From positions 2,356,001 through 2,420,000 of the forward strand of contig JASTWF010000031.1 in NCBI GenBank assembly GCA_030390025.1: a stretch of 64,000 bases of DNA, given 5' to 3'. The notes below the pieces were generated by a model, which worked only from the letters and a program-made list of their open reading frames with translations, had not been told where the DNA came from and did no database searches. Position numbers and translations under genes: made by a program. Shown here piece by piece: positions 21,966 through 61,864 of this stretch (its first letter is position 1; the number at the start of each line of letters is the position of its first letter). The DNA comes from Squalus acanthias. Its lineage: Eukaryota.

Positions 21966-24900
21966 AGCAACTACAACTTGTTAACTACGGTGATTGCCAC
22001 CGATTTAAAAATACACGGTGTAAATAGATTAACATGCAACCTGTGCTTGGAGTAAGCAGGCAACCTTATGCTGCTTTTATAATGCAGGTACCAGTTTGAT
22101 ATTATTAACTGCTTCAGAGCGATGTTAGTCAGTAATACCAAGTTATATTACCAGCTATGCATCGCTGTGTACTCAGGAAAAAGCAGGGCTCTACACATGT
22201 ATTAAAATGTATGAACAGAGCTCTGCAGCAGCCTCATAATAAGTTACATTTTTAATGTTAGGAACAGATGAATGTTTTGTCTATAATAACAGCAAAATAC
22301 AAAAGCAGTCCACATGGAATCAAAAAAAAAGTTTAAAAAGATACCTTAGCATCAATTTAGGCTATACTGCCGTTGGTGTGAAGCCCCAGGTGTGCCAGTC
22401 TACTTGCTAAAATTTTGAATGGCTTCAAACTCAAGTTTTGTATTTTTGTGTCGATGCATTGCAGCATCCTATCTCAACACAGAAATGGAAGTATAACTAG
22501 CCTATTCCAGGTAGTCATAATTACAATATGGAGAATTTTAAGATACAATTTTCGATTTAAGTTCAGCTATCAAATAGCCAGCCTGGTTAATTCCTTATAG
22601 TTCTTCCAGATAAAATCCCTCTCTGTCATTTGATCTAAATACTGTAGATTGCATACTTACATGATAGTACACAGATGTAATGTAATTGAATAGTTACAAA
22701 AAGCAGAGTTCTCCCAATGGTCTAATGAATAAAATCATTGCCCAGCAAAAATATTGCAATTGATAGATTCATCAGTTTCACTTATGTCATGCTGTGGTTG
22801 CTTTATACTTTTAAGTACGTGAAAGAGGTTACCCTCTAAAGCCTTAACCTCTGACTCCGTGGGTAAACGGCCAGACTTCTGGAGAAGAGAAATATAAGCA
22901 GACACTGCCATTTAATTGGTCTAGGTTTTCTGCTCATAATGCTGACAGTAATCCATTAAAATGAATGGATTACCATCAATGTTACAATTGAAAAAACAAG
23001 ACCATTAAGTGCATTTTTGGAGTCTTAGAGAAGCATTTTCACTGTGTAAATTTCACTGGGGAATGTCACAGCATAGCTCTGATAAGGGCACTCACATCTT
23101 TGCTACATATTGTATTCTGCATAAGGTTTGAAACTGCTGCAGGATTTTGGTAGGCATTTCTTAGTGGCGATATGATTTGAGCAGGAAATTTATGCCAATG
23201 ACATCCTGAATTATTTCATGTTGAGACACAAGCCACCTTTGACACATTCATCACAGTATATTTTAGATCAAGTGAGATTGTGTGGGTAGCCAAACTACTG
23301 AGAAAATCTCTCTTCAGTGCAGTTTATGAAAACTGGAAGATTTCAAAGCTTTAAATTGTTTCTCCAAGTTCTTATATAATTGGTTTTACAGATGGTTTTC
23401 AAGTTGCCCTTTTTCATTTGGGTGAGCTGATGCATCTCATTATAACTTCTAGTTCTGTCCTTTTCAGTGAAAATTGACAAAAGGAGGCGCTTACTCTGGG
23501 ATGCTTTGAATAAAATTACTTCGAGAAGTTGCTTCAAATCACTTTTTATTTCTTAAAAAAAACACTTGTGCAGCAAGGAAAAGGAACATAGAAAATTATA
23601 AATAGAGTTAACTTCAGTATATTGGTTCAGTGTAAGAAAATAAACCACTCTGCCTCAGTAAATACTTGAGCATAACTCTCAGCACCAAGACAATTGCCTT
23701 AGCTGACTACAATTTTTTTTTAAACAGGAATAGCCACAGACATGGCCTGGGGCTCAGCCTCTACTTTCACAGGAAGTAAAGTCAGATGGTAGGATTGATG
23801 AATTATCAGTTTACTGAGGGGTGACGATTTGATGTACTAATCAACTCATACCCTCTCAGCTGATACTGCCAAATTGTAGATGTTTCCAAGCTTCCTTTTG
23901 AATGTCAGTTAACTCCTGCCCAAAACAAGTGCGCAGATTATCTTTCACTCTCTCGTCAATTTTGTGCCCCTCCCCCTGAAGGCACTGACTTCAGTTCCAG
24001 TTCCACAAGCCCAAGTTCAGCCTTTAGGCTATTTGACTGTGAAGGGCATCCACAGCTAAGCTTCATCTTGTTGCCCACATCCCCACATTTCTAGCAAGGA
24101 TTGGTGGATAGTGACCAGAAGCAGAAATCCTGGCCAATTTTCCCCTCCCTAACTCAATGGCACTGACTTAATTATAGTACCCAATCAGGATTGGCTAACT
24201 CAACACAGACCAGGGACTGAATCTGGGATTCAGCTATTCACTGGATAAATTTGTTGAGTCATTAGCGATGCCCTGTCATGTTCAAATGACACAAAAGAGG
24301 GAAGAACCTCATTGTCTGAACCGGCTGAATAGCTAATCAGCCAGGATTAAGGAAGTGTCCAGCCAGTGACCCTTTGTAAAGTCTTGTTCATTAAGTCCCT
24401 TCTTGTTAGAATTCCACAATTTATGGCAGCAGGGAGAATAAATATTGTGCACTTTTAAAGTTAATTTGTTGCTTTTCGTTTTGCACATCATTCTTTAGCT
24501 GAGAGGGTAAACAGCGAGCAGCTCCCAGGCTTCTGCAAGTGCCAATCGCCAATAGATAACTGGGAAAAACACAACAGTAGCCCAGCCTGATTCTCTCCAA
24601 TTTTCACCTTCCTATGTGGCCAAGCTAAAATCAGGTAGGCACATAAAAACACCCCCTGTGACTCCAGCAGGCAATGCATTCCAGTAGCAACACATTGCAC
24701 CCGGGCCACCTTTTACATGTTACATTTTGTACAATTTACACAAAAATGGTTGTAAACAAACAGTTTACAGAATTATTATTTTTAAGCACATTAGACATCA
24801 TTGAGTGCTACAAAAACAGGCTTCCACTGCATCAGGAGGTTGATGATCTCTCTCTTCAATAATTTTCCTCTCAGGTTAAAACCCAAGTCCGTCCCAGATC

Positions 24901-26700
24901 AGTCTGGATAGCCCTTCTTCTGTTGGCTCACACTGTGACGAGTCAACTCTTAAGGGTATGTATTGACTGCCAACTAGTTCCTGCAGTACCAGAATGGACT
25001 GCGCTGGAGTTCATTAGTGGAAGATTTTGCTCAGTCTGGGAGCTGCCAAACAAAAGGTGGAGAAAACAGACACACTTTGGATAGCATGCAGAGTGGAGAT
25101 GTGAATGTCACTAATATATAGCTCTGTTATGTCCAGGTATAAAAGACAGAGACTGAGAGTGAGTTGAGGTGGTGTGGCTGCTGGTCTTCCTCCAGTGGAT
25201 GCCAATTTTATTCTTGCACCTATTTGTAAGACAAAACAGTTGGCAAAGGCAGCCTGTAACTGAACCATACAGACTGGACGATCCTATCTTCAATTTTTAG
25301 ATTGTGCTGAGTGACTGGATTTCAGCCAGGGCAGCAGTTGGAAGTGGCGGGTTTAAAGTTGACCTTGGCTAGATCAGCCAGGGTCTCGTTCTTAATTGCT
25401 ATGGAGTGACTTCTGCTGCAAAGTGAGTTTGTACATACTGAGTGAGGATGGGATCGGGCATGGCTCTCATGCCCCCAATATTTGAAGTTTGTCAACACTC
25501 ACTTTCTTCATTCAGATGTACACAAAGGCACCTTGCATGAGATACCAAAGGGCAGCCAGCAACTTTGGACCATATCCCAACAAGTCAGCACCTTAAGAGG
25601 GGGGGGGGGGTCAAAATTGATGGGGGAATGGGGGTGAAGTCAAAAAATTCGCAAACCAAGTAAAAATCTTGGGCTGTGAAATGCTCCTCAATGCCTTTCT
25701 AGTGGTTTCCTCCCGCTGATCACATTTGCATCATATTTTGATGACAGAAGTATTTACTCTGTCCATTTGTAGTTCTCCGGGTATTATTAACATGAAATTT
25801 AGTGTTATTTACTGGTTTTTAGGCTGGATTGTGCTTTGTTTTGGATTGTTTTGCTCCAGTGCAAACGGTGAATATAAAATTGTGGCCTAAATGCAGACTG
25901 AATCTTAAAGCAAGTATCTTGCCCAGGTATACAAACATCCCATTTTATTAAAATCTGTATCTCGGACTGGGTCGTGCAGCAAGTTAGAACATTACCCTTG
26001 TATTTCTGGGACCTGGGTTCACATTTGTCCAGCTGTAAGGGCACTACCTTAAGTAAGTTTGGACCAGTCTCAACAAAGTGCCAAGTGGATATGAGTCATA
26101 GCACAAAGCTGCCCACAATTCTATTTGGTGGTTTCACTGTGTGGTTGGTGTAAGAAATGGAAATGTAATACCTGTGGAGGAGGGGAACTCTTCTGAGGTT
26201 GAGGTTCATTCACACCATCAGGCAACAGTGCAGGAAGCTTTTACAGTGCATCTTTATGTGATTGCTGCCAGCCAGAGTGTTTTATGCTGACACTGGGTGG
26301 TTGCAAAAAATATCTGAAAAATCTTCAATTTACTAGCACTGAAATCTCTCATCTTGAGCACAAAGCCACCTTTTTTTCTTTTTAAAAAAAAGTAGTGGCT
26401 ATGCAAGAGGAAGTAAGGAGGCTACAAATCCAAATAAGGACTAAAATAAGACATTTAAAACAAACTATAACAAGCATAGCACTAGTTCAGTTTACAGAAA
26501 AATCAGATTTAAAATATCTCAATAGTAAATGCCCTTTAATAAGATTCAAACTAAGCTTTTTCTTCATCCACATCTATTTCCAAAATAATTAGCAGCTTCA
26601 GAAGGGAATTACAGTGGGAGTTCAGCTCGTGTGCAATTCTTTTGCTGGATAGTTAAAGATCATTCAAAGAACAGCAACTCTTAAAAGACCCCAGCTCTGC

Positions 26701-26706
26701 TTTATT
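26701..26706 (-). other. Candidate proximal polyadenylation signal of AGO1 (AATAAA); more distal candidates at 25944-25949, 25207-25212 and 23545-23550
   Basis: AATAAA about 920 nt after the stop, followed by a GT-rich tract on the minus strand; use not demonstrated. Confidence 0.35.
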
Positions 26707-27627
26707 CATTCAGCTGTCTGCTAAAACTGATAATCTATAATCTACTTGTTTCCTTGCTGCCATTTTCACCCCCTTCTGTATGGCGAGGGCTGAGCAGGAG
26801 TGGCTCACGATATCAGTAAAAATGAAGTGCAGCCATCACGACGTTTTAAGGTTCTTAACGCGACATTTTAAAAAAATAATTTACAAGAGATTCCATTTTT
26901 TATCTGCCTCAAGTCCAAGACTTACTACTTTTCCCATAAATTCATAATAACTTTCAAAGTCCAGACTTTGGAAAGTGACCACATGATAACATTAAGATTC
27001 CTTTAGATTGTGTAAATACAATGTTTCTGCACTTGTCAAAATGAAACTGAAAAGCACAATAAAGAATGACACATCACAAAGAACATAAACAGGTCAAAAA
27101 CTATTGATATGTTTTGGTGCCAACTTAGGCATATGTATGAAAAAAAATTCTGGCAAGTCTAACAGACTTAGAGATTCAAATAATCACAAGTCCAGGCACT
27201 AAATTGAGAAGCTCAGCTTTTGGACCGATGGGATTTTTCAACCCCTGAATGATGTCCTTGAAGTAGTTGCTTATTGACCATTTTCTTTTATCCATGTGTC
27301 TCTAAAAACTAACAGGAGTTTGGCAGTGGTGAACATTTGCATTTTACATTAAAAAGTTATCAATATATTGCATAAATACGTGTAAAAAATAAAACTTGAA
27401 TGTGAAACCTGTTTTCTTCATGGAGAAGTGTTTGATCTCTTTTCTATAATCTGTTTGGTCAGTCTTTCCCCGCCCATTAGTAGTTCATTGAAAGCTACTC
27501 CTTGTAAAATACATGTTGACCCCTTCCAACCTCCAAGACATATTCAGTGAAAGATGCTTGAATGTTCTTGTATGGCTGCTTTTGGTCCAGAAGGCTGGCA
27601 GGTTGAGGTGACTGAACTATCACGTAG

Positions 27628-27736
27628 TTAAGCGAAGTACATTGTGCGTAAGGTGTCCTGGTGAACCTGCACGGCTTTAGCAAGTGCCTGGGGATCCCGT
27701 CCATTACTCTGTCCAGAGATATGGCTGCCTTCTCCA
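27628..27736 (-). CDS. AGO1: AGO1 terminal coding exon (S)[35 protein letters not shown]
   Basis: End of ORF 27628-27969; ttacag acceptor; TAA stop at 27630-27628; C-terminus recognised as AGO1. Confidence 0.97.
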
Positions 27737-27999
27737 CTGTAAACAAAAGAAGAAAAATAAACAAAATTCTCCTTCCATTTGCCCACTAACAACTTGTTGC
27801 AGATTAGGATCTCAGCAAGTATTTCTTTACACAGAGGGTGATCGACAGCTGGAACAGGTTTAAAAAAAAGGCTAGTTGAGGCCAGGGCACTTGACTCATT
27901 TAAGAAATAGCTAGCTATATGCTGTAACAGGAAGATGGTATTTTGAAAGAATAAGATCAAATGGGCCAAAAGGCAGTCTTCAACAGAACCTATCTTATC

Positions 28000-28965
28000 A
28001 AGACCCCTGGAATATCTTCCCCCAAGATGCTTACCAGTGCACTCTTAACCTCCCAACTGCATAGCCTTTGGGCTCTATTTGCCACAATACCTCTGCAGCT
28101 GTTGATTGCTCAACTAGTCCCTCGTCAGCTTTGATGCCCTCAACCCCAGCAAAACCATCCCTGTTGTTCCCCCAAAACAGGTCCCCAACTTGGTTCCCTC
28201 CAGTCCAAAGGGCGCAAACTCAAGGAGGACCTAGCACACAACTAGCTTAGCTATCCATCGCCAGATCTGACTGGACCACAACTGGGCATCACTATCATGT
28301 CAAAATGACCCCACTGCTCCGGAGGGCAAAGATAACAACTTCCAGGTTCCTTTTCTCCACCACCAACTGCCTCCTTAAATCACTCTCCCCTGTCCCCTCC
28401 ACCCTCGCTTCTAACAAGAAGTGTGAGGACCTCATGGGATTTCTTCAACACCATTCCAGATACTATCTCTCTTTGCTGCTTCCTCCCCTTCCCACCATGC
28501 TAAACATTCCCCAAGGTAACCCGTACCCTAGCCCAATTCTCTCTCTGGTTTCACTCCCACCTAGCCCATGCCCTCTCCAAGCTCATCTTGTTTGAGACCC
28601 ACTTCCTGCTCTTTCAATCCCATTTCCGCTAAACTGCTGACTACCCAACTTCCCATCTGGCCCCCATGCTAGTTGACATGTAAATACTTCATCTCCTCAG
28701 GCACTGTCCCCATACCTTTCAAAACCACCATCACCAGCCACCTCTTCAAAAAATGCACCCTTGTCCCATCTGTCCTAGCAAACTACCGCCTCATTTCCAA
28801 CCTCCCTGTTCTTCCAACGTACTTGAATTGTCGGTGTCTCAGATCTGTTCTCATATTTCTCGCAATCCCCCATATGACTTCCTCCAATTAAGTTACTGCT
28901 CCTCCCTAGCACCGAATCAGCCTTAACCAAAGTCATGAACAATATTCTCTGTGACTGTGACACAG
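28000..28965 (+). mobile_element. Degraded L2-clade ORF2 fragment
   Basis: LANYRLISNLPVL (NYRPIS-like motif) and STESALTKVMNNILCD. Confidence 0.7.
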
Positions 28966-29950
28966 CAATATTTGGCTTATCTGAACAGCAAGAGATTTTT
29001 TTCTACCGTTAAATTTGTCATATTTACATTGATGTAGTAACTCAATGTAGTACTTCCTTTGTATTTTGACTTTCCGAAGCTGGAGAGCCTTGAGGCTTTA
29101 TAATGAATCTGTATACTCATTAAAAATCTATGAATTAGTGATGGAAGAGAAGAAATATCTCCAAAAGCTGATGGATTGAAGTAATGAATCAGTAGGCAAT
29201 GAAAATATGTTCAAAGAGAAAAGTTTAACAGCTTGGTAAGAAATATTTCTATATTCAATTGACATTTTTATAGGAAGCTGCAGATGACCATATGGATGTT
29301 GGAGAAGGCAGCTGTGTTTGTGTGTGGAGAAAGCTGAGTCATAGTTTACTGACAGGAGGAGAGTACAAACTCCCAAGATAGACAGAGAGTGACACAAACA
29401 ATTTCTGTGGAAATTGTTGCAGATCAACAATTCAAACCTGACAAGACAGCTGCAACACCCACAAATCCTCTCTCCTGTTGTTCTCTTCTGTTGAAATTTC
29501 ATATAATTTGCTTTAATTACTTTGATATTAGGAAAGATGACTCCCAATACCTGTTCCTATTAATAGGGGAGGGAAAGTAAAACTCAAACTGATCAATGCT
29601 ATAGACCATGAAATTGTAGCACATGCACTCATGACTCCACACATACTAAGCTGCTTATCTCAATGACATGCACTTCTCCACAAAAAGATAATATTTAACA
29701 AAAGTTTGCTTATAAAATCATCAGAGAAAGTCACCCATGGCCCACCTTCTTGCGAGACTGTGACCCATGCAGAGGCCTAAGATAATCATAAATATATCAC
29801 GGCACCTTCACCAACCAGTCCCAAGCTGGCTCTTAACAAAAGAGGCAACGCTGTAGCAGGAGGCATTAATTACACGTTTTTATATTATGCAGTAAATATA
29901 TGCAAACTGGTGAAGTAAATCTACAGCAATTATTCAGACCGTTTCCCTTA

Positions 29951-30172
<222 letters not shown>

Positions 30173-32915
30173 TTATGAATTTCAATTGAGAGAATAGCAC
30201 TGAAAAAGCATACTGAAATCTACCTCTTCACTGCTGTACTGTCTTTAATGTAAATATCTTTAGGGATCAATAAGCTTAATTTCAGAAGTCAGCTGCCTGT
30301 TTCATACCTACACTGACCAAAACCTTTTCAGACCGCCACATCCTAAGGAAACAAAAACTCAAACCTCTTGCCACAATTTGGAAAGGTTTTTACATGTCCG
30401 CTCTTCTCTTTCCTCCTACAAAGTAAATTATAAAATTGAAAACAACTTTCATTCCAACACCAGCACAGTACGTCAGACTAGTAGCATTCAAAGCAAGATA
30501 CTTCCTGATGGACAATGAACATGACAGATAAGGACAATGGTCCAAATAACTAGTATAAATCTACCTCACTAATACTTCCCACCGTCTGGGCTAACACATG
30601 AAGAATGACTGCTTAGATAAGATACTGGAGTCATGTGGCCTTGGTAGGATGATCTGTTAACATGACTCATCAGCTTCAGGAGTGGAGGGAAGGAAGGAAA
30701 ATAATGACCCTTTTCTCTTCCCAAAATTGGCAGATTACCATTTTGAAAACAGTTCTCAAACAGTATGCTTGCCCATTGTACATGCAGTACAGCACCATTC
30801 CACTTTAATTTAAAAGCTGAATGTTGGCTTGCCTAATGTCAGTGAGTAAATACAGTGGCCAATGTTGAACTGAGCCCTACAGTCCAGCAAAGTCCCAGGT
30901 CGAATCTTAGTCGACTGAGTGAATCTCAGGTCGCCACTGAATTCAATGATCACAGTCAGGTCAGCAGTATTCACGTTATAACGGGAGAGAAAACGACAAG
31001 TAAGAATGACTGTAGTAATAGGAAAGGTGCCTTAATATTTGTTTATGAAGCTAAATGCTGTAACTCAGGATGCACATCACTGAAGAAATAATTAGATTTC
31101 CAAGGCTATCTGTATCATATCAGTTAATAAACTGACTTTGATGTTCCATAAGTGAACGGAGATATTAAATTTACACTGCAATCTCCAAGATCACTGACTG
31201 AAACACCAAAATCAGGCAGGGAGAGATAACATCTTCAAAGTGTAATTACTTTTTCACAACATTCCACATCCCTGTTTCTTTAGCAATATCCTGAAGCCAA
31301 CCCTGCTGTGCAATTGCCATTCTTCTCTCTCTCTCTACCATTTTTCTTTGTTATGAAGTACTTAACCAAAATGTGTTGTTTTTCCAACTGGGGAAAGTCT
31401 CAATTTGTCAAAACAGCAGCAGGAGCAGTATTTTCATGTAGCATTCAAACTAGGAATCCTTCAGAGCAAGTCCTTAACTTGGCGTAAAGGGAAAGTGAGA
31501 AAGAGCAAAGGTATGAGAGTGTGAAATTAGTTGATGTTTAATTATATTGCTTATTGTTGGGGGGGGGGGGGTTGGGTGTGGTGAGGAAGAGAAAAAAGAG
31601 AGAAAGAATGATAAATGAGGCATAATGTACTGAAGCTTAAACACAGGAAGTGGCAAGTTGCAGAAAATAAATTACGAAGTGGTGCAAACTTCCTCAATAA
31701 TTTAACTCTCGATAAATCCCAAGTCTGCATGCTCTTCCATCTCTCTAGAGGCTCTTCTAATACCTCTCAGACTGAAGGACAGATATAAAACAAGGTTGTC
31801 ACCTGATTGACAATTCCCTCTCACCTCTCTCCCTGTTGTAATGTTTTGAGTCAATTTTCCCTCCCTGGTCTCTCTCTATGTTACTAACACCATTATGGTC
31901 AATACTCCTCCACTTTCATTCGTTAGTCCTCCAAAACTGCAAATGCACCATCCTACATGATCTTGCTGTTCCCTTAATCCTCACTGTGTTGACATCAAGT
32001 CTTGTTGTAGAACCTCTCAGACTCCAACTCCCTGTTCAAGAACCTCAAACTAGAATTTCTTACCCCCTCCCCTCCGCCGCCACCTTCCCTTCTTCCGACA
32101 ATTGTCAGGTTTGTAAAGCCACAACTCGTCCAAATCTAATCATTATTTCCGGTGTACCTTACCTTCTATTTTCAGCCTTGGTGTGGTTCTGCAATGTAGG
32201 CCTACGCCCAACACAAATTTCTCAATAAACAGACTGCACGTGGTGCTTCAAGTTATATCTGCCATATCACAAGCTCCATCCTTAGTAATTCACACCCACC
32301 TGTGTGTAGCCTATTTTTGCAGTGATAACTGGCACCATGACAGGATCTGAATGGGAAGAACAATGTAGGAAAGGAGGAAGCAACAAATAGAAATCAAGCA
32401 AGGTGGGAGAGGAATGGAGACTGTCAAGAGAGAAATTTGAGCACTGGTAGCCCAGGGGTGGGTAGATACATATGCATTTAGATTCAAAAAGTAGTTCTGG
32501 CAGTACCACCTGTGTCCTGGAAACTCCCCTCTTAGCTTGCTCGATTTCTATTTGTTGCTTCCTTTTTTCTTACATCCATCTAAAAAACAAAGGCAGCCAT
32601 TTCATGCTGAGGCTATTTACGTTAGTTTCTGTTGGTGATGGAAGTTTGCAAATTGACCTGGATCTGGCAATCTGCAAAACTTCCCATCAACATCAATTAA
32701 CCTGTACCTGACCTTAGAACCTATTTAGACCAGTTCTCCAGAGGATGTAGCTGGGCAGTTGCCTTAATGGGAAAAAAGAGTCAGGCTAGCAGCTAAACAT
32801 GCTCCAGACCCTAAACTACTTTTCAACACTGCCACAGGAGATCAGCTACTGTGTGTAAATTCCCCTCAGCTCTCCTATTCTGCAATGGTCACAAGTACAA
32901 AGGTACCCAACTAAC

Positions 32916-38209: not shown

Positions 38210-39985
38210 TCTTGCATTTATATAGTGCCTTTAACATAGTAAAACGTCCCAAGGCGCTTCACAGGAGCGTCATGAAACACAATTTGACACCAAACCACAT
38301 AAGGAGAGATTAGGAGAGGTGACAGTCAAAGAGGTAAGTATTAAAGAGCATCTTAAAGGAGGAGAGGTAGAGAATTCCAGAGCTTAAGGCCTAGGCAGCT
38401 TAAGGCCTAAGCAGCTGAAGGCATGGCTGCCAATGATGGAGCGCTGAAAATGAGGGATACGCAAGAGGCCAGAATTGGAGGAGCGCAGAGATCTCAGAGG
38501 TTTGTAGGGCTGGAAGTATTACTGAGATAGGGAGGAACGAGGCCATGGGGGGGGGGGTGGGATTTGAAAACAAGATTGAGAATTTTAAAATTGAGGTGTT
38601 GCCAGACTGGGAGCCAATGTAGGTCAGTGAGCAGAGGTGATGGGTGAACGGGACTTGGTGCAAGTTAAGATACAGGCAATAGAGTTTTGGATGAGCTCAA
38701 ATTTACGGAGGGTGCAAGGTGGGAGGCCAGCCAGGAGAGAATTGGATTAGTCGAGTCTAGAGGTAACAAAGGCATGGATGAGGGTATCAACAGCAGATGA
38801 GCTGAGGCAGGGTTGCAGTGTAAGATATAATTCGCTGTTCGTTGTGACTTGGCTGAATTTAATGTACCAGCATTCTTAGAGAGTTCTGCAAACAAACCTT
38901 TAAACAGATTTAGTTAACTTCTGTAACCCTTTCAGACATGGCATAAGCAGCCCATTGTCTACAGATTTAGTTAACTACTGCAACCTCATCAGACAGGACC
39001 TCGAGAGTTCTGCAAAACAAACCTTTAAGGTGACTGAACAATGAGAAACTTCTGCAACCCCTTCAGACATGGCGCAAGTAGCCTCGAGGCTCACTGACTA
39101 CAGATAAGAGATACCCATGATTGAACAATCGTCAACGTGGGCTGGGACGCGTACGCATTGGGAGGCCTGCCAAGTTTTGGGTATAAAGGAGTTAGGGAAT
39201 GCTTGGGACTGCTTCAGTGAGTCGGGCGACTTGACCGGTCGCACAGAAAGAAAAGCCTACTAGTCACCGGCGAACTGGTTACTCGCTGGTGTTAGTATGT
39301 ATGTGTGCTTATGCTTGCTCATTGAAGCTTATGCTTGCGTGTAAACTTGATTGATTTTAAGTAAAGAAGTAGCTACCCTGAAATCTTTGTCTCATTGTCT
39401 TCATTCTGGTTCGGGTCCGAACTCTAAGTAACTGTCAGATCGGGATACCGTAAAGGGCCTAGTCTTACAGCAGATGGGTGATGATATGTAGGTGGAAGTA
39501 GGCAGTCTTGGTGATGGAGAAGATATGGGGTCGGTAGCTCAGCTCAGGGTCAAATTGGATGCCAAGGTTGGAAACGGTCTGGTTCAGTCCCAGACAGTGG
39601 CCAGGGAAAGGGATGGAGTCAGTGGCTAGGGAACAGAGTTTGTGGCAGGGACCAAAGACAATGGCCTCGGTTTTCCCAATAGTTAATTGGAGGAAATTTC
39701 TGATCATCCAGTACTGGATGTCGGACAAGCAGTGCGACAAATCAGAGGCAGTGGAGGGGTTGAGAGAGGTGGTGGTGAGGTAGAGCTGGGTGTCGTCAGC
39801 GTACATGTGGAACCTGACATGTTTCGGATGATGTCGTCGAGGGGCAGCATGTAGATTAGAAATAGGAGGGGGCCAAGGATAGATGGTTGGGGGGACTCCA
39901 CAGGTAATGATGCGGGAGTGGGAAGAGAAGCCGTTGCATGTGATTCTCTGGCTGCGGCTGGATAGATAGGAATGGAACATATCAC
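38210..39985 (-). mobile_element. L2-clade LINE (RT and 3' tail) split by a solo LTR
   Basis: ORF 39465-40013 with FHMYADDTQLYL; ctatataaatgcaag tail near 38210. Confidence 0.88.
38819..39469 (+). mobile_element. Solo LTR, 651 bp (ERV or gypsy type)
   Basis: TGTAAGA...TCTTACA inverted termini; GCAG duplication at 38815-38818 and 39470-39473; TATAAA 39182-39187; AGTAAA 39360-39365; repeated U3 modules. Confidence 0.88.
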
Positions 39986-40034
39986 ATGATATGTATTTGC
40001 TTGTTTCCTGCACCTGTTCTAAACCTCCATTAAG

Positions 40035-40438
40035 AAATGCTCAACTCACACTGGGGTTGCATCCCAAAGGCTTTCAAACTCTCTACTTTCTTCTTGAAGA
40101 AGTTGATAGCCCAAAATATAAAAGGCTGAGATCTGCCACAGGTGGTGAAACCACAAGCCTCCAGCCTCTTATTCCTTGCAAGGAGGAAGCTCTGGCAGGC
40201 ATACTTGGAAATCAGGAAATGGGAAATGAGGTGTTGGCTCGAGGTTGGTAATCATTTCATGACTCTGAATGTATACAGCAGAAACTGAAATAGGTCATCA
40301 CAATGCTTAATGCAATGTGAATGCTTAACTCACACTGGGGTTGCATCCTAAAGGCTTTCAAACTCTCTGCCTTTTATATTTTGGCCTTCCAACTTCTTCA
40401 AGAAGTAGAGATCTGCCACAGGTGGTGAAACCACAAGC
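40035..40438. repeat. ~120-bp direct duplication (40035-40158 and 40320-40438) with an inverted core
   Basis: Flanks align directly while the central ~40 bp are reverse complements. Confidence 0.9.
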
Positions 40439-57365: not shown

Positions 57366-58549
57366 AAGAACATAAGAAAGATACAGAGAGGATGTTTCCC
57401 CTTGTGTTTCAGAATAAAGTGTCGCCCTTTTAGAACCGAGATGAGGAGGAATTTCTTCTCTCAGAGGAGATCTGTGGAATTCTCTGCCCCAGAGAGCCGT
57501 GGAGGCTGGGTCATTAAATACATTTAAGGTGGAGATGGACAGATTTTTGCAAGATAAGGGAGTGAAGGGTTATGGGGAGCGGGCAGGGAAGTGGCTTTGA
57601 GCCCAAGATCAGCCATGATCTTATTGAATGGTGGAGCAGGCTCGAGGGGCCAAGTGGCCTATTCCTGCTCCTATTTCTTATGTTCTTATGTAAATAGGAG
57701 CAGGAGTAGACCATTTGGCCCCTTGAGCCTGCTCCACCATTCAATAAGATCATGGCTGATCTTCGACCACAACTCCACTTTCCTGCATTATCCCCATATC
57801 CCTTGATTCCCTTAATATCCAAAAATCTATCGATCTCTGTCTTGAATATACTCAACAACTGAGCATCCACAGCCCTCTGGGGTAGAGAATTCCAAAGATT
57901 CACCACCCTCTGAGAGAAGAAATTCCTCCTCAGCTCCGTCCTAAATGGCCGACCCCTTATTCTGAGACTGTGACCCCTGGTTCTAGACTCCCCAGCCAGG
58001 GGAAACATCCTCTCTGCATCTACCCTGTCAAGCCCTGTAAGAATTTTGTATGTTTCAATGAGATCACCTCTCATTCTTCTACACTCTAGAGAATATTGGC
58101 ATAGTCTACTCAATCTCTCATAGGACAATCCCCCTATCCCAGGAAACAGTCTGGTGAACCTTTGTTGCACTCCCTCTATGGCAAGTATATCCTTCCTTAG
58201 ATAAGGAGACCAAAACTGTACACAATACTCCAGGTGTGGTCTCACCATTGCCCTATATAATTGCAGTAAGACGTCTTTACTCTTATACTCAAATCCTCTT
58301 GTAATAAAGGCCAACATACCATTTGCTTTCCTAATTGCTTGCTGTACCTGCATGTTAACTTTCAGTGATTCGTGTACAAGGACACCCAGGTCCCTTTGAA
58401 CACCAACATTCCCCAATCTCTCACCATTCAAAACATACTCTGCTTTTCTATTTTTCCTGCCAAAGTGGATAACTTCACATTTCTCCACATTATATTCCAT
58501 TTACCATGTTCTTGTATATATTACATTTGGTCCCCTCATCCAAATCATT
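57366..58549 (-). mobile_element. Young CR1 3' region, middle layer of the nest
   Basis: ORF 57514-58500 (VEKCEVIHFGRKN...VRPHLEYCVQFWSP); the last tail bases are displaced to 57366-57378. Confidence 0.92.
57379..57690 (+). mobile_element. Inner CR1 3' fragment inserted in the tail of the minus-strand CR1
   Basis: Same family tail 'gatcagccatgatcttattgaatggtggagcaggctcgagggg...ttcttatgttcttatg'. Confidence 0.85.
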
Positions 58550-59775: not shown

Positions 59776-60912
59776 TATTCCCTTCTTAGGCAGTCCCTCG
59801 GAACCGAGGATGACTTGCTTCCACATTAAAAATGAGTTCTCAGGTGACTGATGAGCCCAGTGCGGGACCTACAGTCTGTGTCACAGGTGGAGCAGACGGT
59901 GGTTGAAGGTGCAGGTGGGTGGGGTGCTTGGGTTGACGTGCGCTCCTTGCGCTGCCTGCGCTTGGCTTCCGCTTGCTCCCGGCGAAGAGACTTGAGGTGT
60001 TTGGCGCCTTCCCGGATGCTTCTCCTCCACTTTATGCGGTCTTGGGCCAGGGATTCCCAGGTGTCGGTGGGGATGTTACACTTTTTCAAGGAGGCTTTGA
60101 GGGTGTCCTTGAAGCGTTTCCTCTGCCCACCTGGGGCTCTCTTGCCGTGCCGGAGCTCCGAGTAGAGCGCTTGTTTTGGGAGTCTCGTATCGGGCATGCG
60201 GACAATGTGACCCATCCATCGGAGCTGATCGAGCATGGTCAAAGCTTCGATGCTGGGGATGTTGGCCTGAGCGAGAACACTGACGTTGGTGCGCCTATCC
60301 TGCCAATGGATTTGCAGGATCTTGCGGAGGCAGCATTAGTGGTACCTCTCCAGTGCTTTGAGGTGCCTGCTGTACATGGTCCATGTCTCTGAGGCATACA
60401 GCAGGGCGGGTATCACTGCTGCTCTGTAGACTATGAGCTTAGTGCCGGGTTTGAGGTGCTGGTCTTCAAACACTCTCTTCCTCAGGCGACCGAAGGCTGC
60501 ACTGGCACACTGAAGGCGGTGTTGGACTTCGTCGTCTGCCCTTGTTGACAGTAGGCTCCCAAGGTATGGAAAGTGGTCCACGTTGTCCAAGGCCTTGTCG
60601 TGGATTTTGATAATCGGGGGGCAGTACTGTGTGGCGGGGGCAGGTTGGTAGAGGACCTTTGTCTTACGGATGTTTAGTGTAAGGCCCATGCTCTCGTACG
60701 CTTCGGTGAAGGTGTTGATGGTTTGGAGTTCGACCTCCGAGTGAGCGCAGACGCAAGCGTCGTCTGCGTACTGTAATTCGACGACAGAGGATGGGACGAC
60801 CTTGGATCTGGACTGGCGGCGACGGAGGTTGAACAGTTTCCCGTTTGTTCTGTAAATTAGTTCCACTCCAGCAGGGAGCTTACTGAGGGTGAGATGGAGC
60901 ATTGCAGCAAGG
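59776..60912 (-). mobile_element. 5'-truncated RTE-clade LINE with a 32-bp target-site duplication
   Basis: ORFs 60336-60902 (LQYADD, FPYLGS) and 59826-60242 (QLRWMGHIVRMPDTRLPK, C-terminal CxxC...HLRTH) share one frame split by a single TAA; duplication at 59744-59775 and 60913-60944. Confidence 0.92.
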
Positions 60913-61864
60913 ATATACTACTGTCATTAGAAATAGCACATCCTCATATTGGCCTCTTGGTAGTCAGCCAGAACTGTATTTGTGATGGCCCCTCAAAAGA
61001 GGGTGGTGCATGGCCTCAGAAATGCATCAAGTGAGGGAAAAAGAACAGCAAAAAAACAAAGGAGTTTGCCCAGGCACTGAATACACGCAATGAAATAATG
61101 CTGTGTTATGGATAGCTCTGAACCACACAGACTACACATAAGCACTGTGAGCTCTGTGCATATTAGATTCAGTGACCCAGAGAATGACATGTCATAACAA
61201 GGTCACAACATGCTTCAATGTATTTTCTTTCAATGACAAAATCCTTTAATCAGTTTTAGTCTACTTCAGTGAAAGGAGAGGGAGGAGTGATCAGCTGACA
61301 TAAGGTGTGCTTATAGTGGGGTAAACTAGCTGGGACACTTTCCCCCCCTCGCTATATCCAAAATGAGCCTCGACACCACAGTGAGGTCTGGACATCCATT
61401 TAGCACTGAACCAGTGAAGCCCAGCATTGAGCACCCATGGGATGCAAATACATGGCCATCTCAGTCAGAGGCATGCACTCCACGTGCCTATATTGACTAG
61501 CTTAGCTCTCTGATGCCCTCCCCTCTGCAAGCCCAGCTGTTATATTTACAGGTTTTTTCCCCCCTCTGAATTCTCCCCTACTGGGCTTTTGGCTCCATCG
61601 TGTTTTCAATTTGAGCACACCAGCCATTAACATTAACATAAGCAGGAAATGGGTTTGCTGTGAGATGAAATTGTCTGTGTACATTTTTCTGAGATGATCC
61701 AGTCCCAATGGGGGTCCCATTTAGCAACTTGTAGAGGGACTGATGCCGCAAATCACAATTTTGTCCGACATCCTAGAATGTTTGGACAGTACCAGACCCA
61801 TATGCAACCAAAGAACGCAAAACAGACTTTTGGAGGCAACTCCTGCCCACAGTGCAGCAGCATC

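Follow-up and report, generated by a model that had tools for sequence, protein, structure and literature searches.

Does the AGO1 gene at this locus carry, behind its stop codon, an ancestral form of the readthrough extension described in mammals, or has the DNA there been kept for another reason? In mammalian AGO1x the extension reads RQNAVTSL..., the inter-stop region measures 99 nt, and a let-7a site follows 10 nt past the stop (Singh et al. 2019, PMC6694283). Whether AGO1x reaches useful levels is a matter of open dispute, in which sequence conservation serves as one of the arguments in favour. A first-pass annotation of this DNA, whose account of the RQNAVTSL extension and of a let-7 site just past the stop matches that paper, had proposed that the post-stop element is ancestral or that readthrough in this lineage uses a different cue. 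Judged from the alignments described below, the post-stop element very likely predates mammals. We consider it probable that the ribosome terminates at the TAA and that the conserved islands behind it act as RNA, as a conserved 3'UTR element.

The AGO1 stop codon and the open frame behind it

The gene in the window (the whole stretch of DNA that was analysed, 64,000 nt) is AGO1: the last exon matches human AGO1 chains of the PDB at 35/35 positions, with AGO3, AGO2 and AGO4 chains scoring lower, and the window has ten more AGO1 exon matches upstream of it. AGO1 is placed between AGO4-type and AGO3-type paralogs on contig C2339, and an AGO2-type paralog on contig C8 completes the four Argonaute ends of this genome. 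For comparison with this cluster, we take the human gene order to be AGO4-AGO1-AGO3.

The last coding exon, read on the minus strand, terminates in ...TAC TTC GCT, followed by TAA and CTA CGT. The sequence bears out what the first-pass annotation had read here: 27 open codons up to a TGA at 27546-27544, with VTS in frame as GTC ACC TCA in the zero frame at +16..+24 after the stop. The 27 sense codons translate to LRDSSVTSTCQPSGPKAAIQEHSSIFH. The features around the stop are as follows.

27631..27736, minus strand: coding portion of AGO1's last exon, which opens with the final base of a split Ser codon and continues GEGSH...TMYFA, assigned by identity to human AGO1, with the acceptor and the normal join checked
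27628..27630, minus strand: AGO1 stop codon TAA, from the sequence; TGA in L005, L006 and human
27624..27627, minus strand: CTAC directly behind the stop, which agrees in part with the CUAG readthrough motif (as defined in PMC4132726) and is not kept in other AGO1 ends
27547..27627, minus strand: 27 open codons, likely a chance open frame in the 3'UTR, given that 23% of window stops have as much and that peptide likeness is lacking
27544..27546, minus strand: second in-frame stop codon TGA, from the sequence

An assembly error is unlikely in this region, since all 53 sampled words of 27100-27640 were present in sequencing run X1 of another study, a run guessed to be RNA and not marked as a source of this DNA. 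In runs of six other organisms, 30-72% of the sampled words were present. Contigs from four of these runs (organisms B-E) were aligned to 27100-27640; three runs gave nothing and X9 gave two pieces outside the post-stop part, an outcome that weighs neither for nor against conservation there.

As the first-pass annotation had cautioned, an open stretch of this length is not rare. In the six frames of the window, 1531 of 6552 stops (23%) are followed by at least 27 open codons, as are 28% of base shuffles of the 84 nt behind the AGO1 stop; the length of the frame therefore carries no weight. The stops of the paralogs in this genome are followed by 9, 26 and 18 open codons, the 26 belonging to AGO2. 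What lies within the frame is less common. CTA follows only 82 of the 6552 stops (1.3%), and GTNACCTCA occurs within 30 nt at 110 of 127,940 positions (0.09%), a rarity which argues that the motif behind the AGO1 stop is not due to chance.

A longer open frame of 96 codons, in the +1 phase (27495-27785, minus strand), spans the last exon and the post-stop part and exceeds the zero-frame extension. Used as a protein query, it matched no database protein and yielded no candidate in relatives. An Rfam search of 24000-32000 at E values up to 1 gave no match.

Programmed readthrough at UGA-CUAG occurs in AQP4, MAPK10, OPRK1 and OPRL1 (Loughran et al. 2014, PMC4132726; 10.64898/2026.07.14.738498). 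According to PMC4132726, UGA-CUA is conserved throughout vertebrates in the validated CUAG genes, the four bases after the stop are critical for CUAG readthrough, a bare UGA-CUA is read through at 1.5%, and UAA in place of UGA cuts OPRL1 readthrough ~6-fold, to about one sixth of 31%. Singh et al. likewise report that TAA in place of TGA lowers AGO1 readthrough (PMC6694283). The AGO1 stop resembles these genes in having CUA directly behind it and in an open frame close to their 28-residue tails, but it is UAA-CUAC rather than UGA-CUAG and it lacks a conserved tail. Whereas CUA is vertebrate-wide in the UGA-CUAG genes, it is absent from all 11 other AGO1 ends that could be compared (nine extended protein records, L006 and human) and from the teleost locus L005; Leu is the first codon after the stop in none of the nine records, nor in L005, L006 or human. 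The idea of a different conserved cue, namely CUA, thus gains no support, because other AGO1 ends are without it.

This leaves the possibility of a cue private to this lineage, in which UAA-CUA was gained on its own account and opens a predicted functional tail of 27 residues. The scarcity of CTA behind window stops speaks for such a gain, as does the residual leak of the UAA version of OPRL1 (PMC4132726). Here, however, CUAC and not CUAG stands behind the tightest of the stops, and the OPRL1 level relies on further 5' and 3' signals. A stimulatory stem was considered and rejected, as no stable fold follows the stop in the window (z -0.5) or in L006 (z +0.1). Nor was a tail similar to the 27 residues present among the listed proteins (0/62, 0/61, and 0 in the 120 listed of 406). 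We regard a lineage-specific leak as very unlikely. If the ribosome instead terminates at the TAA as we propose, any leak at UAA-CUAC would be at a basal level, far below the 1.5% of bare UGA-CUA, and the tail would be unselected.

Islands after the stop and their reading frames

Metagenome contigs scanned with the Argonaute end pattern contained four vertebrate loci; genome contigs and viral contigs contained none. In L006, an AGO1 exon is followed by TGA, 13 nt and then GTTACCTCA. The first 81 nt behind the stops of the window and L006 align with a score of 48 (z 3.4, p 0.002, 2000 dinucleotide shuffles), with 34 of 68 positions identical at offset -2 and a GTyACCTCA block common to both. 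Past the second stop the likeness is weak (+85..+300; z 1.9, p 0.05). The window showed no likeness to the six other Argonaute ends compared (L002-L005, L007 and L008; p 0.23-0.88). Three islands are defined by alignment in the post-stop stretch.

27604..27612, minus strand: island 1, GTCACCTCA, +16..+24, homologous to the let-7 site of mammals and matching let-7 only as a 6mer-A1 (ACCTCA, 27609-27604)
27590..27596, minus strand: island 2, AGCCTTC, +32..+38; AGCTTTC in L006 and, by eye, in human
27568..27577, minus strand: island 3, AGCCATACAA, +51..+60; identical in L006, in another phase

The islands start at +16, +32 and +51 in the window and at +14, +31 and +49 in L006, which places them in phases 0/1/2 and 1/0/0, respectively, with agreement at none of the three. 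The zero frame of L006 reads KPNFCYLTQ, VTS occurs only in its +1 frame, and none of its three frames resembles the 27 residues (p 0.54-0.94). The frame shift of L006 sits in a run of four T, where an error in a single contig is conceivable. Three protein records, P0066, P0119 and P0120, in which the gene caller had read the TGA as Trp, nevertheless all begin KPNFCYLTQESFQ, as does frame 0 of L006; with three independent records starting in this way, the shift is not one contig's error. P0120 has a second frame change after ~30 codons, and two of the three records carry a 3-nt insertion relative to L006. Together with L006 they are close relatives and were counted as about one lineage. This lineage probably lies outside the placental mammals, given the report that mammalian alignments preserve the frame (Ghosh et al. 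2020, PMC7507497).

A block that is kept exactly, yet off-frame, separates conservation of the RNA from conservation of the peptide. The sequence comparison establishes homology to L006 and an off-frame let-7 block in four records, with neither CUA nor a peptide conserved. The let-7 block is thus probably far older than mammals, and at least one non-human lineage keeps it exactly and out of frame. Of the ancestral element that had been proposed, the antiquity of the DNA stands, on the L006 homology and the GTyACCTCA block, while an in-frame extension is unsupported as the frames differ. The frameshifting indels in related species that the first-pass annotation had named as refuting its proposal do occur, the block of L006 lying 13 nt past its stop.

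A control pair indicated how far such a pattern is peculiar to AGO1. The AGO2 ends of this genome (L003) and of the assembly that holds L006 (L008) are similarly alike (z 2.9, p 0.01), with open stretches of 26 and 30 codons, so that proximal UTR conservation with an open frame is ordinary for Argonautes. Sequence past the stop is conserved in all Argonautes, according to a remark in PMC7507497. Conserved proximal UTRs also fit the high load of conserved miRNA sites in AGO1-3, whose mRNAs belong to the 14 that carry the most such sites in human (PMC7229836).

Protein records extended the comparison to further AGO1 ends. The Argonaute end was present in 221 of 223 stored proteins, and 36 of these continue past it, all through a Trp marking a TGA read by the gene caller; extended records thus reveal only TGA stops with long frames. 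Nine are of AGO1 type: P0066, P0119, P0120 and six teleost records, the class of the six having been fixed by named ago1 proteins. None of the nine contains VTS or resembles the 27 residues (p 0.16-0.87). No mammalian AGO1x record appeared among the matches listed (120 of 406), probably because clusters hide it.

L005, a teleost AGO1 locus, has no alignable block at the place of island 1 (z -1.1). We had considered L005 as AGO3 and rejected this on the likeness of its UTR to teleost AGO1; its exon begins with Ala, so it was counted apart. Records of the GEGSHV...IHHD type were likewise rejected as AGO3, as named proteins show them to be teleost AGO1; L007 was classed as AGO3-like. The exon in the window is itself of a non-teleost type, which, along with a UTR more distant from human than that of L006, suggests a cartilaginous fish. 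A block conserved among teleosts is read TTSSPSLIP in some records and HHLIPIPYSQ in P0069, which repeats the pattern of nucleotide conservation across frames.

Two further observations concern the teleost ends. A segment of 15-16 codons, from the stop to a second TGA/TGG, is present in five of the six teleost records (the set being P0065, P0068, P0124, P0125, P0126 and P0069, with P0069 frameshifted) and in L005 (+1..+51). It is unrelated in sequence to the window and may reflect ACC-triplet slippage or a teleost-specific tail. L005 also has CACCTCA, the same let-7 6mer-A1 form as in the window, at +34 and +75, the second copy opening the block kept among teleosts; alignment of these copies with the window island gave z -1.1.

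The human AGO1x sequence and the let-7 site

We compared the window with human AGO1 by eye and with hand-placed gaps, using the human sequence as printed in PMC12263837. The two share an orthologous gene and position, a homologous block 12-15 nt past the stop, V-T-S in frame and open frames of similar length (27 codons here, 33 in mammalian AGO1x). They differ in the stop (TAA here, TGA there), in the seed match (6mer-A1 here, 7mer-A1 there) and in frame, which is lost against human after ~15 codons and against L006 from the first island. The spacers from stop to island 1, from island 1 to 2 and from island 2 to 3 measure 15, 7 and 12 nt in the window, 12, 13 and 11 nt in human (by eye) and 13, 8 and 11 nt in L006. 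Two of the eight non-zero pairwise spacer differences are multiples of three, as expected without a frame constraint, and both (3 and 6 nt) are between window and human. These two therefore have a common frame for ~15 codons (chance ~1 in 9), up to a 1-nt shift that leaves island 3 out of frame. Over these codons R, V, T, S, S and P are identical (6/15, by eye), and the changed codons comprise 4 synonymous and 9 non-synonymous ones. The let-7 seed is broken at the third base of the Val codon, a synonymous change that fits a peptide more readily than a let-7 site.

This shared stretch of ~15 codons is the best evidence for an ancestral peptide. On that account the jawed-vertebrate ancestor had an R-x-x-x-V-T-S readthrough peptide, which this lineage and mammals retained and which teleosts and the L006 lineage lost. 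Four of the six identical residues are encoded through synonymous differences (by eye, with hand-placed gaps), and the frame is kept in mammalian alignments (PMC7507497). The account nonetheless requires two independent losses, and L006, whose frame is lost, keeps the islands in part better than human does, its island 3 being that of the window. The 9 non-synonymous of 13 changed codons are near the neutral share; the frame common to window and human ends short of island 3; neither the stop codon nor the +4..+7 context is the same; and Singh et al. describe the conservation of AGO1x as within mammals (PMC6694283). An ancestral peptide is, on balance, quite improbable. The in-frame VTS follows from nucleotide conservation and a one-in-three chance of phase, and islands that lie in different frames among vertebrates suggest that selection acted on the RNA and not on a peptide. 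A literature search that covered few subscription papers found nothing on a post-stop AGO1 element outside mammals.

The let-7 match itself was examined against the let-7 complement of this genome, which has ten hairpins over the Rfam cut-off (L009-L018) and five distinct mature 5p forms. Against all five forms, island 1 pairs with let-7 positions 2-6 plus A1 only, which confirms the earlier reading of a seed match broken at position 7. Island 1 has no canonical 6mer, 7mer or 8mer seed match, and L006 has a 7mer-A1. Pairing of island 1 with the let-7 3' part reached -13.3 kcal/mol, with 857 of 1000 shuffles as good; with this pairing at shuffle level, a let-7 function of island 1 here is weakly founded. 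Repression by miRNAs is poor close to a stop codon, and island 1 is both weak by definition and close to the stop. It does resemble marginal 6mer-A1 sites, ACCTCA being a perfect match to let-7 positions 2-6 followed by A; this site type is described as marginal, with weak but specific binding (McGeary et al., 10.1101/414763). Pairing of island 3 with the let-7 3' half was rejected, because the island sits to the wrong side of the seed and duplex energies reach only -6 to -13 kcal/mol.

Canonical let-7 seed matches were present in the 3'UTRs of the paralogs, at +297 in AGO3 (L002), +279 in AGO4 (L004) and +1135 and +1405 in AGO2 (L003); the 12 kb after this AGO1 stop contain none. The AGO3 and AGO4 sites, both 7mer-A1, recall the miRNA feedback on Argonaute 3'UTRs described in PMC7229836. 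Alignment of these two sites was not above chance, with 88 of 1000 shuffles as good.

A marginal let-7 match with 3' pairing at chance, and a modest homology of ~50% identity, are what one would see if the islands had no function and were slowly decaying remnants of a shared ancestral UTR. Exact islands of 9-10 nt would, however, be unlikely in such distant vertebrates without selection, neutral sequence presumably being saturated, and the paralog pairs show no likeness. Absence of function is the least probable of the readings considered here.

Readthrough could also be blind to the sequence of the tail. On this prediction an element beside the stop, in the form of let-7-loaded RISC or of a protein bound to islands 1-3, would have impeded termination from early jawed vertebrates onwards; since the C-terminal end of AGO1 would be disabled whatever the tail, frame and peptide could drift freely. 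In window, L006 and human alike the block does follow the stop at 12-15 nt, the open frames of all three are long (27, 58 and 33 codons), and reporter readthrough fell when the human site was moved 18 nt away (PMC6694283). Against this, long open frames are common in the window, TAA is read through less (Singh et al., PMC6694283), the window seed is broken with 3' pairing at shuffle level, and the teleost L005 is without an alignable block. In insulated reporters, moreover, human AGO1 readthrough was <0.1% (Suresh et al. 2025, PMC12263837), a result contested in a reply by Singh et al. (PMC12264181); the level of AGO1 readthrough is thus disputed even in mammals, as the first-pass annotation had warned. 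We consider sequence-blind readthrough unlikely. Its fuller form is distinctly unlikely: that a cis element next to the AGO1 stop has favoured readthrough ever since the ancestor of jawed vertebrates, irrespective of the peptide, that the tail turns AGO1 into a non-silencing competitor, and that a perfect seed was traded for UAA-CUA here.

We therefore return to normal termination with conserved RNA islands. The ~80 bases past the AGO1 stop would be old 3'UTR, in which short islands are read in different frames across vertebrates; ribosomes would stop normally at the TAA and selection would act on the RNA. Island 1 would be a docking site for the let-7 family, as a 7mer-A1 in L006 and human and a marginal 6mer-A1 here, and may be one of many miRNA- or protein-binding sites by which the silencing pathway feeds back on the mRNAs of its own Argonautes. 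The case for the locus as a new readthrough isoform is weak. It does offer natural reporter controls: L006 combines TGA and a perfect seed with the wrong frame, and the window combines TAA-CUA and a broken seed with the right one.

An inverted copy of the last AGO1 splice donor

The same gene contains a second element that may outweigh the readthrough question. In the intron before the penultimate coding exon (30151-29952), the segment 30450-30569 (plus strand) is an inverted copy of 29910-30029 (minus strand). The copied part takes in the splice donor of the penultimate exon, with the last 78 nt of that exon on one side and 42 nt of the last intron on the other. At the search sensitivity used, the inverted copy is unique in the genome, and such a partner arm is absent within 1.5 kb in AGO2, AGO3 and AGO4.

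The 661-nt hairpin region folds at -256.5 kcal/mol (z -12.9, 20 shuffles), and 91 of the 120 positions of the duplex are Watson-Crick pairs. The arms differ by 23 transitions, of which 20 preserve pairing as G-U and 3 abolish it (binomial p 0.0002). In five other inverted repeats in 26000-64000, G-U-keeping and breaking transitions number 14 and 19 (Fisher p 0.0007 against the AGO1 hairpin). This G-U bias points to selection for the duplex; the transition test was picked after the alignment had been seen, and strand-biased mutation could contribute to its result.

Retention of the last intron is predicted to give a protein ending in ...DKEHDR, with the last 36 residues replaced by one, and skipping of the penultimate exon to shift the frame into a 10-residue end. 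The hairpin may be an editing-complementary or donor-masking element from which an AGO1 without its last 35 residues could arise, and its significance may lie in possible control of that form. The paired part also covers an Arg codon of AGO1 where AGO2 and AGO3 have His, a residue that we assume to have a catalytic role. A literature search covering few subscription papers found nothing on an AGO1 donor hairpin.

The AGO1 introns contain other repeated sequence. Reverse-transcriptase-like LINE fragments, judged by eye from their translations, lie at 59829-60917, 57517-58500 and 39468-40040 (minus strand). Nested inverted repeats without G-U bias (I1, I3 and I4; arms of 62-130 nt, 75-94% complementary) occupy 57406-57968 in an AGO1 intron, where they adjoin LINE-like reading frames.
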